Source of the DNA: a virus
Taxonomy: Duplodnaviria > Heunggongvirae > Uroviricota > Caudoviricetes
Strand: one strand, 5' to 3'
Length of the DNA stretch: 15,120 nt
IMG/VR virus record: IMGVR_UViG_2713896902_000007
Coordinates: 1 to 15,120 of that record
This document shows positions 613 to 1,386 of the stretch, in pieces. A model generated the notes under the pieces. That model saw nothing but the letters and a program-made list of their open reading frames with translations. It made no database searches and was not told where the DNA came from. Both the position numbers and the translations under genes were made by a program. Every line of letters starts with the position of its first letter. The first letter of the stretch is position 1.

Positions 613-1386
613 TCAAAAATTAGGTGAGTAACGGACCGGGGACATAGCTCCTTTTTTTCTTAATTCATCTGGTATTTTTTTTCCAAGATAAAGATTTGCT
701 ATTTCAGGTGGGGCTTCTCGACCTTCAAAACCATAGCGAGAACTTTGTGTTGCCTCAAAGTCAGGATCTTCGTCCCAGTATTTCATCGTAGGGAAATTTT
801 CACGTGTTGATTTGAGCCATTTATCAGCAATGAAAACCCCTCGAACGATCCCCCTTACAGTAGCAAGAATGACTTCTGCTTGGCTGGCGCGAGAGACATT
901 AATGCGCCAGCTAAATCGAACCGCATCATAAAGCTCTGAATCCTTTGCACTTCTGTTAACGGAAATCATTAATGCTTTATGATGAAATGTTATGGTTTCG
1001 GGTTGATATGTTGCTATCAACTCTTTGACATGCGCGGCGCCGAATTCATTGCTGCCAGCACCATTCATGATATTCGTTAACCCAGGGTAGGCATCAATAA
1101 GTGCTGCTTCAACTTCGTACGCCGTCTTTTCATCAGTCATTCCGTGTCGATGGATGACGTGGATAACTTCAAGTCCTGCTAACCTTATTTCTCTGATTTG
1201 CTTTAGCTTGTTGCTCAGTAACTCGTCATCATCAGCCGCTGCCACCTCACCGCGCATATGGGCAAATACGCGGTTACCTTTGCCTTTCCCTACATAGAAG
1301 GTGCTTCCGTCCCTAGGATCAATCAATCGGTATACATACCAGCCAAGGTGTTCAATTACTCCAGAAGGAAACTCAGTAATATCCAT
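613..1386 (-). CDS. GIY-YIG nuclease-domain protein, function unknown
   Basis: ORF 613..1437 on the minus strand; preferred start is the ATG at 1386 (MDITEF...). N-terminal GIY-YIG signature visible in the translation: GWYVYRL ... [10 protein letters not shown] ... conserved R/E further on. The C-terminal ~150 aa have no motif I recognise. Confidence 0.6.

Follow-up and report, generated by a model that had tools for sequence, protein, structure and literature searches.

The gene at positions 613 to 1,386 on the minus strand of virus record IMGVR_UViG_2713896902_000007 (Caudoviricetes), within the 15,120 nucleotides of that record analyzed here (the window), almost certainly encodes CMoRE, also called PD-T4-3, a single-protein phage defense nuclease that depends on 5-hydroxymethylcytosine (5hmC) or its glucosylated form (5ghmC) and that is carried as cargo of an e14-like prophage. 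Later papers trace PD-T4-3 to a functional selection in E. coli. Neither PD-T4-3 nor ECOR68 is named in the main text of Vassallo et al. 2022. The name CMoRE was given to PD-T4-3 by Liu et al. (Nat Commun 2026, PMC12923530). An earlier reading of the same DNA, made from the sequence alone and referred to below as the original prediction, had offered three functions for the gene: a stand-alone defense nuclease, which is the one retained, and a homing-type endonuclease or a repair nuclease, which are not. The actual activity, namely that of a type IV modification-dependent enzyme specific for 5hmC and 5ghmC, had not been foreseen. The gene and the parts of its protein are placed as follows.

613-1386, minus strand: coding sequence assigned to CMoRE (PD-T4-3), 257 amino acids, ATG at 1386, stop codon at 613-615, uninterrupted.
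1042-1386, minus strand: N-terminal GIYxY-YIG nuclease domain (approximately residues 1-115, with Y17, Y19, Y31 and R39), placed by Pfam PF22945 at residues 28-110 and by the residues named in PMC12923530.
1222-1233, minus strand: acidic residues D52-D53-D54-E55 of the autoinhibitory loop, their role taken from the 4A mutant of the O157:H7 protein.
616-1020, minus strand: C-terminal modification-sensing domain (residues 123-257, including Y127).

An alternative TTG start would extend the open reading frame (ORF) to 1437; the ATG at 1386 is the start used by the RefSeq annotation and by the crystal-structure numbering alike. The GIY-YIG motif that had been recognized at the N-terminus is present (GWYVYRL), and the Pfam domain search proposed in the original prediction places the protein in the GIY-YIG nuclease superfamily above a curated threshold: PF22945 (LEM-3_GIY-YIG) matches residues 28-110 with 54 bits (cut-off 27; E 2.4e-14). 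The classical GIY-YIG model PF01541 reaches 13.7 bits, under its cut-off of 22.6 bits, and a search of the NCBIfam profiles gave no match. RefSeq labels the gene 'hypothetical' or 'LEM-3-like GIY-YIG domain-containing protein'.

The assignment to CMoRE is carried by similarity over the entire protein. In particular, the PADLOC model for PD-T4-3 (PDLC04031) is matched with an E-value of 2.2e-140, residues 1-256 aligning on profile positions 1-255 of 256, and PHROG 5356 with an E-value of 2.9e-143. A phmmer search against the PDB retrieves, over the whole length, entry 9U75 from E. coli O157:H7 (E 1e-172; 254 of 257 residues identical, 98.8%) and entry 9U7U from APEC O1 (E 1e-150; 219 of 257 identical). 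The three differences from 9U75 are E55D, Q169K and N197H, and the two nuclease domains are the same except for E55D. The characterized O157:H7 protein (WP_000355475.1; PDB 9U75 and 9U8D) has the same length as the window protein and is the product of the gene at the equivalent position in its locus (L002), while WP_000355479.1 of strain OW1E2 (L004) is identical in sequence to the window protein. All residues named by Liu et al., namely Y17, Y19, Y31, D52-D53-D54-E55, R80, V92, L96 and Y127, are kept, and with them every functionally tested residue of the O157:H7 enzyme; R39 is also present and would be the catalytic arginine. The window protein differs from the assayed one at just 3 of 257 residues, and the published mechanism can be carried over to it with high confidence.

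That mechanism is already characterized. As reported by Liu et al. (PMC12923530), CMoRE protects approximately 10^5-fold against T2, T4 and T6, and it does so alone in BL21. Defense is direct and non-abortive, with normal growth at a multiplicity of infection (MOI) above 1, and in infected cells T4 DNA is depleted and host DNA is left untouched. DNA containing 5hmC or 5ghmC is degraded, while DNA containing cytosine (C) or 5-methylcytosine (5mC) is neither bound nor cut; T4(hmC) is sensitive to the enzyme and T4(C) is resistant. Cleavage takes place at CN11/N9G, leaves 2-nt 3' overhangs and requires two modified cytosines, without strict sequence specificity. The crystal structures of the same work define an N-terminal GIYxY-YIG domain with Y17, Y19, Y31 and a catalytic Arg and Glu, whose nearest structural relative is UvrC, and a 15-residue acidic loop, reported in most members of the family, that acts as a lid. 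When four consecutive acidic residues of the O157:H7 protein are replaced by alanine (the 4A mutant), the enzyme cuts normal DNA and becomes toxic. Moreover, a tetramer is required for function and is disrupted in the V92S/L96S mutant. Y127's main-chain oxygen touches the 5-hydroxyl of 5hmC. Two independent studies are in agreement. In one of them, the isolate NILS69 became sensitive to LF73_P1 and LF73_P3, two of the phages tested, when PD-T4-3 was deleted, and the gene cloned into K-12 conferred protection from four phages, each a member of the subfamily Tevenvirinae. In the other, a Capnocytophaga homologue, 48% identical, cuts T4 and Mu DNA and spares T4-GT7 DNA.

Transferred to the protein of the window, these properties would imply that the C-terminal domain binds DNA carrying 5hmC or glucosyl-5hmC, and not DNA with C or 5mC. 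A tetramer, organized as a dimer of dimers, would read two modified cytosines about 21 bp apart, and the N-terminal GIYxY-YIG domain would cut between them (CN11/N9G, 2-nt 3' overhangs). The acidic loop over the active site would exclude unmodified host DNA, unless tightly bound modified DNA outcompetes the loop. The predicted outcome is that the incoming DNA of T-even-type phages would be destroyed directly and non-abortively.

Some points weigh against this reading. The mechanistic data come from the O157:H7 protein, and the substitution of E55 for D55 sits in the autoinhibitory loop. A promoter and terminator scan called no consensus sigma-70 promoter upstream of the gene, and that CMoRE is expressed in this strain is presumed from its 190 bp of upstream sequence, which are 97% identical to the O157:H7 locus. 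From its native promoter, the orthologue of APEC O1 gave much weaker protection (PMC12923530). Finally, it is from their separate specificities that we infer a complementary action of the two neighboring systems, in which EcoRII would be directed against unmodified CCWGG DNA and CMoRE against escape phages that hypermodify cytosine. As to the loop, E55 keeps the charge and matches the APEC O1 enzyme (PDB 9U7U and 9U7Z), which is like the window protein also in its two-domain architecture and in its tetramer, and is unlike it at 38 of 257 residues, mostly in the C-terminal domain.

The C-terminal stretch of about 150 residues, which had been considered unassignable in the original prediction, corresponds to the crystallographically defined modification-sensing domain (PMC12923530), since the residues named in that work are all present in the window protein. 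A Pfam search of this domain at E-values up to 10 gave no match, the authors of the structures report no structural homologue for it, and 5hmC is reported to be bound at the edge of the domain and not in a pocket (PMC12923530). With Foldseek, the domain retrieves mainly PUA-like families (EVE/ASCH/YTH/SRA), at values below significance (E 0.08-0.5, TM-score 0.26-0.45); the 5hmC sensor may be a very divergent PUA-like (EVE/ASCH/YTH) reader. Other type IV enzymes, such as PvuRts1I/AbaSI and those with EVE, YTH or SRA domains (for example VcaM4I and the N-terminal domains of McrB), differ from CMoRE in employing PD-(D/E)XK or HNH nucleases in place of GIY-YIG, and the similarity of their readers to its sensor is only remote (E at least 0.08 in the Foldseek search, and no Pfam match).

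When the C-terminal domain alone was used as a homology query, most of the matches were fragments and none was a fusion to another nuclease family. The domain was observed on its own in proteins of approximately 120-145 residues (P0023-P0025 and P0029) from metagenomes and from Psychrobacter urativorans, which may be readers that act by themselves or may stem from truncated gene calls. In addition, full-length homologues of CMoRE, with 38-45% identity over 97-99% of the protein, are encoded by phages of about 253-285 kb (records H126-H142), for example Serratia phage Moabite, Pseudomonas phage OBP and Klebsiella phage N1M2. The annotation of these jumbo-phage proteins, where there is one, reads endonuclease, G-I-Y Y-I-G endonuclease or putative homing nuclease, and the proteins could serve as weapons against competing phages with hypermodified DNA.

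The CMoRE gene is present in 838 of 5426 complete E. coli genomes (15%), with 95-100% nucleotide identity, and its junction with pinE through a hairpin is found in about 806 genomes. In the loci sampled, the gene always occupies prophage cargo positions. Its left neighbor can be pinE, a lambdoid tail-fiber-assembly gene or an acyltransferase gene, and on its right lies the EcoRII restriction-modification (R-M) module, the right attachment site (attR) in serU followed by an AraC-family gene, or a hairpin with a prophage remnant. As the neighbors vary on both sides among genomes, CMoRE is a single-gene system without an obligatory partner. Strain R12 matches the first 4721 bases of the window at 99.4% identity and shows the order e14-like tail genes, invertible tail-fiber segment, pinE, CMoRE, methyltransferase, endonuclease and ssrA; in the RefSeq annotation of related loci, too, an invertible tail-fiber segment precedes pinE. 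The O157:H7 locus is like the window in its succession of pinE, hairpin, CMoRE and 190-bp upstream region. It is unlike the window in its right neighbor, which is the serU attR and not the EcoRII module, and in the position of the host prophage, at serU instead of ssrA. In the e14 prophage of K-12 (L005) homology to the window ends 2 bp past the pinE stop codon, and the slot after pinE (2741-3913) is taken by mcrA. McrA resembles CMoRE in that it is a modification-dependent nuclease of type IV and forms a one-gene cargo directly behind pinE; unlike CMoRE, it is an HNH nuclease that targets 5mC and 5hmC, and the two proteins are unrelated. In other words, the slot after pinE is a recurrent cargo site for type IV enzymes in e14-type prophages, with mcrA in K-12, CMoRE in the window and no occupant in loci L006 and L007.

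The limits of the mobile unit can be given to the base, with the following features.

1-555, plus strand: pinE-type serine invertase at the end of the e14-like prophage (context; Pfam Resolvase and HTH_7; RefSeq pinE).
555-593: left cassette boundary, a full hairpin of 39 nt in the interval where the pinE and CMoRE genes converge, with repeat copy 1 (555-575) as its left arm.
1387-1574, minus strand: upstream (presumably promoter-bearing) region moving with the CMoRE gene, conserved in O157:H7 and H10407.
1562-1583, plus strand: serU relic, an anticodon arm of tRNA-Ser(CGA) that matches serU nt 25-46 at 21 of 22 nt and shares part of its length with repeat copy 2.
1575-1596: end of the cassette on the right, formed by repeat copy 2, in which the hairpin breaks off past its loop; from 1597 on, the EcoRII module follows.

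The duplicated sequence of about 25 bp that had been described as bracketing the gene is real. Specifically, it is a direct repeat of 22 columns (555-575 against 1575-1596), with 20 identities, one mismatch and one 1-nt gap, and its local alignment score of 33 compares with 18.7 +/- 2.4 (maximum 28) in 300 shuffles. It was detected by gapped local alignment combined with these shuffles, the ungapped repeat finder having missed the indel-bearing copy. The RNA fold of 540-625 has a free energy of -28.8 kcal/mol (z -4.5); the hairpin at 555-593, being without a T-run, was not called as a terminator in the promoter and terminator scan.

The view of the gene as part of an inserted cassette is confirmed by the comparison of loci. 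Only at 553-557 and at 1580-1596 does the window lose its homology to the other loci. In particular, segment 1-1580 is 97-98% identical to the O157:H7 and H10407 loci, where everything past 1580 differs, and the loci with other left neighbors, namely L008 with the lambdoid tail-fiber-assembly gene and L009 with the acyltransferase gene, begin to match at 553-555. In the CMoRE-free sites L006 and L007, pinE is followed by a single hairpin and then by CTGGCTG(A/G)TG. In L004 and L009, the hairpin, the CMoRE gene, its upstream region and a second full hairpin precede the same flank as in these CMoRE-free sites, and in the window, L001 and L008 the second hairpin stops after 22 nt, where the EcoRII module starts. 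Because homology breaks at the hairpin copies and the gene-free sites have one hairpin, CMoRE can be said to travel as a cassette of approximately 1 kb, and the simplest account of its movement is homologous or microhomology-mediated exchange at the shared boundary element. In O157:H7 and H10407 (L002 and L003, about 5170-5240) the sequence at the position of the relic is prolonged by the 3' 71 nt of serU, a stretch that looks like an attR; serU was identified by direct alignment to the K-12 gene, an Rfam scan of the O157:H7 junction giving only sub-threshold matches, a tRNA-like one included. This suggests that the CMoRE gene formerly lay beside the serU attachment site and moved with a piece of it.

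The boundary hairpin of about 39 nt, GAAACCGCAGCACGTCGTATGCAAGAACGTGCTGCGGTT, occurs in 2788 of the 5426 E. coli genomes, in up to five places per genome, for example at the right end of Rac in K-12 (L010, 2501-2539) and in a prophage at the lambda attachment site of strain 55989 (L011, 2508-2545). It often precedes a conserved GGCTGGTGAACTTCCGATAGTGCGAGTATTGAATGAT stretch, where the RefSeq label is a 'capsid protein' fragment. The hairpin is a widespread prophage-end element and not specific to CMoRE. A reading that goes further, and that we regard as unlikely, is that the ~1-kb unit is moved between prophage cargo slots by a site- or structure-specific mechanism recognizing the hairpin in an attC-like manner, the hairpin being a general docking site for defense cargo. 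Two other candidates for the repeat, a Pin crossover site and an IS200/IS605-type end, were rejected on a reading of the sequence only, as the copies are direct and one copy is kept at the CMoRE-free sites. The repeat is also unlike the 26-bp sites of the hix/gix type.

The same cassette structure has to be weighed under other readings of the gene. A free-standing GIY-YIG homing endonuclease (I-TevI/Seg-like), spreading the cassette by cutting cassette-free alleles, would go with the sharp cassette boundaries and the several prophage backbones, with the GIY-YIG N-terminus and its weak match to PHROG 314 'homing endonuclease' (E 0.0022), and with those full-length jumbo-phage homologues (38-45% identity) that are annotated as putative homing nucleases. 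The protein is nevertheless 98.8% identical to an enzyme that needs modified cytosine and has no strict sequence specificity, for which unmodified E. coli or prophage DNA would be no substrate. Moreover, Pfam found no NUMOD, IENR or helix-turn-helix DNA-binding modules in it, and the gene, whose right flank comes in three or more different versions, occupies a cargo slot between genes and not a conserved target gene, so that homing is a very improbable function. Even smaller, to the point of being negligible, is the probability that we give to a housekeeping or repair nuclease of the UvrC/Cho/SLX1 kind, or to an abortive-infection toxin degrading host DNA. The structural relationship of the nuclease domain to UvrC and the toxicity of the 4A loop mutant, which cuts ordinary DNA, would be in line with such roles (PMC12923530); against them stand a gene that is confined to prophage cargo positions and to 15% of E. 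coli genomes, and cells that survive an MOI above 1 with host DNA untouched and T4 DNA depleted (PMC12923530).

The neighboring R-M genes raise a further alternative and are located as follows.

1789-3222, plus strand: EcoRII-type methyltransferase, a separate system (PADLOC MTase_II, E 3.8e-230; Pfam DNA_methylase).
3257-4471, minus strand: EcoRII-type endonuclease, a separate system (PADLOC REase_II, E 8.9e-234; Pfam EcoRII-N and EcoRII-C).

As had been pointed out in the original prediction, the CMoRE gene is transcribed divergently from the methyltransferase gene (RefSeq-type start at 1789). The two share an intergenic region of 402 bp. This arrangement with a Dcm-type methyltransferase, and the presence of the CMoRE-methyltransferase-endonuclease block also in a lambdoid prophage (L008), would be compatible with an accessory part in EcoRII restriction-modification, such as that of a mismatch nickase akin to Vsr or of a further nuclease under methyltransferase control. 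To this reading, too, we assign only a very slight probability. The methyltransferase junction is found in only 245 of the 854 genomes that carry the CMoRE upstream region (about 29%), and the homology break at 1580-1596 parts the two modules. No Vsr similarity was detected, the Pfam matches at E up to 1 being GIY-YIG families only, and CMoRE protects alone in BL21 and ignores 5mC DNA (PMC12923530). The junction count and these two properties of CMoRE also make unlikely the dependence on the EcoRII methyltransferase that the original prediction had suggested, and the co-occurrence with R-M genes that it had proposed to check is facultative. A type II R-M endonuclease of the Eco29kI kind with the methyltransferase as its cognate partner was likewise rejected, on the junction count and on the homology break between the genes. 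Since CMoRE ignores 5mC, Dcm-type CCWGG methylation is compatible with its presence in the same cell. A 20-nt inverted repeat (80% complementary) was observed between the CMoRE start region (1352-1371) and the sequence just upstream of the methyltransferase start (1731-1750), and may be due to chance.

Beyond the R-M module, the window loses its homology to strain R12 after 23 nt of the ssrA 3' end, and a P4-like satellite follows, with genes for alpha primase, Ogr/Delta, Psu and integrase.

4700-4722: degenerate copy of the 3' end of ssrA (TGGTGGGCTGGCGGAGTT), at the end of the R12 identity and the start of the P4-like satellite.

It seems that two elements lie in tandem at ssrA, the satellite and the e14-like prophage that carries the R-M genes. 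No tRNA or tmRNA was detected by ARAGORN across the window; of ssrA and serU there are fragments, which become visible by alignment only. An ORF of 527 amino acids at 12294-13877 (plus strand), between psu and the satellite integrase gene, has no Pfam domain; its PADLOC matches are to the candidate system HEC-07 (E 6.8e-29) and, in part, to NsnC. The psu-integrase interval is the known defense hotspot of P4. Downstream of the alpha primase gene, two direct repeats of 120 nt (4861-4980 and 5042-5161) are 78% identical, are spaced 181 nt start to start and contain motifs of the TGTTCAC type; they presumably resemble the crr replication region of P4.

The family of CMoRE, its structure, its substrate and its phage range are already published (2022-2026), and what the window adds is modestly new only: where the cassette begins and ends to the base, the remnant of serU in it, how general the hairpin is, and a sensor domain with weak PUA-like similarity. 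Accordingly, the gene can be renamed with confidence, and the value of the finding lies in annotation and context, and little in discovery. As to the biology of these elements, the locus illustrates how temperate phages stack in one cargo slot a type II system directed against unmodified DNA and a type IV system directed against hypermodified DNA, and how the limits within which such cargo is exchanged are marked by a hairpin that is widespread. Should this hairpin be a recombination site, it would provide a handle for finding further defense cargo.
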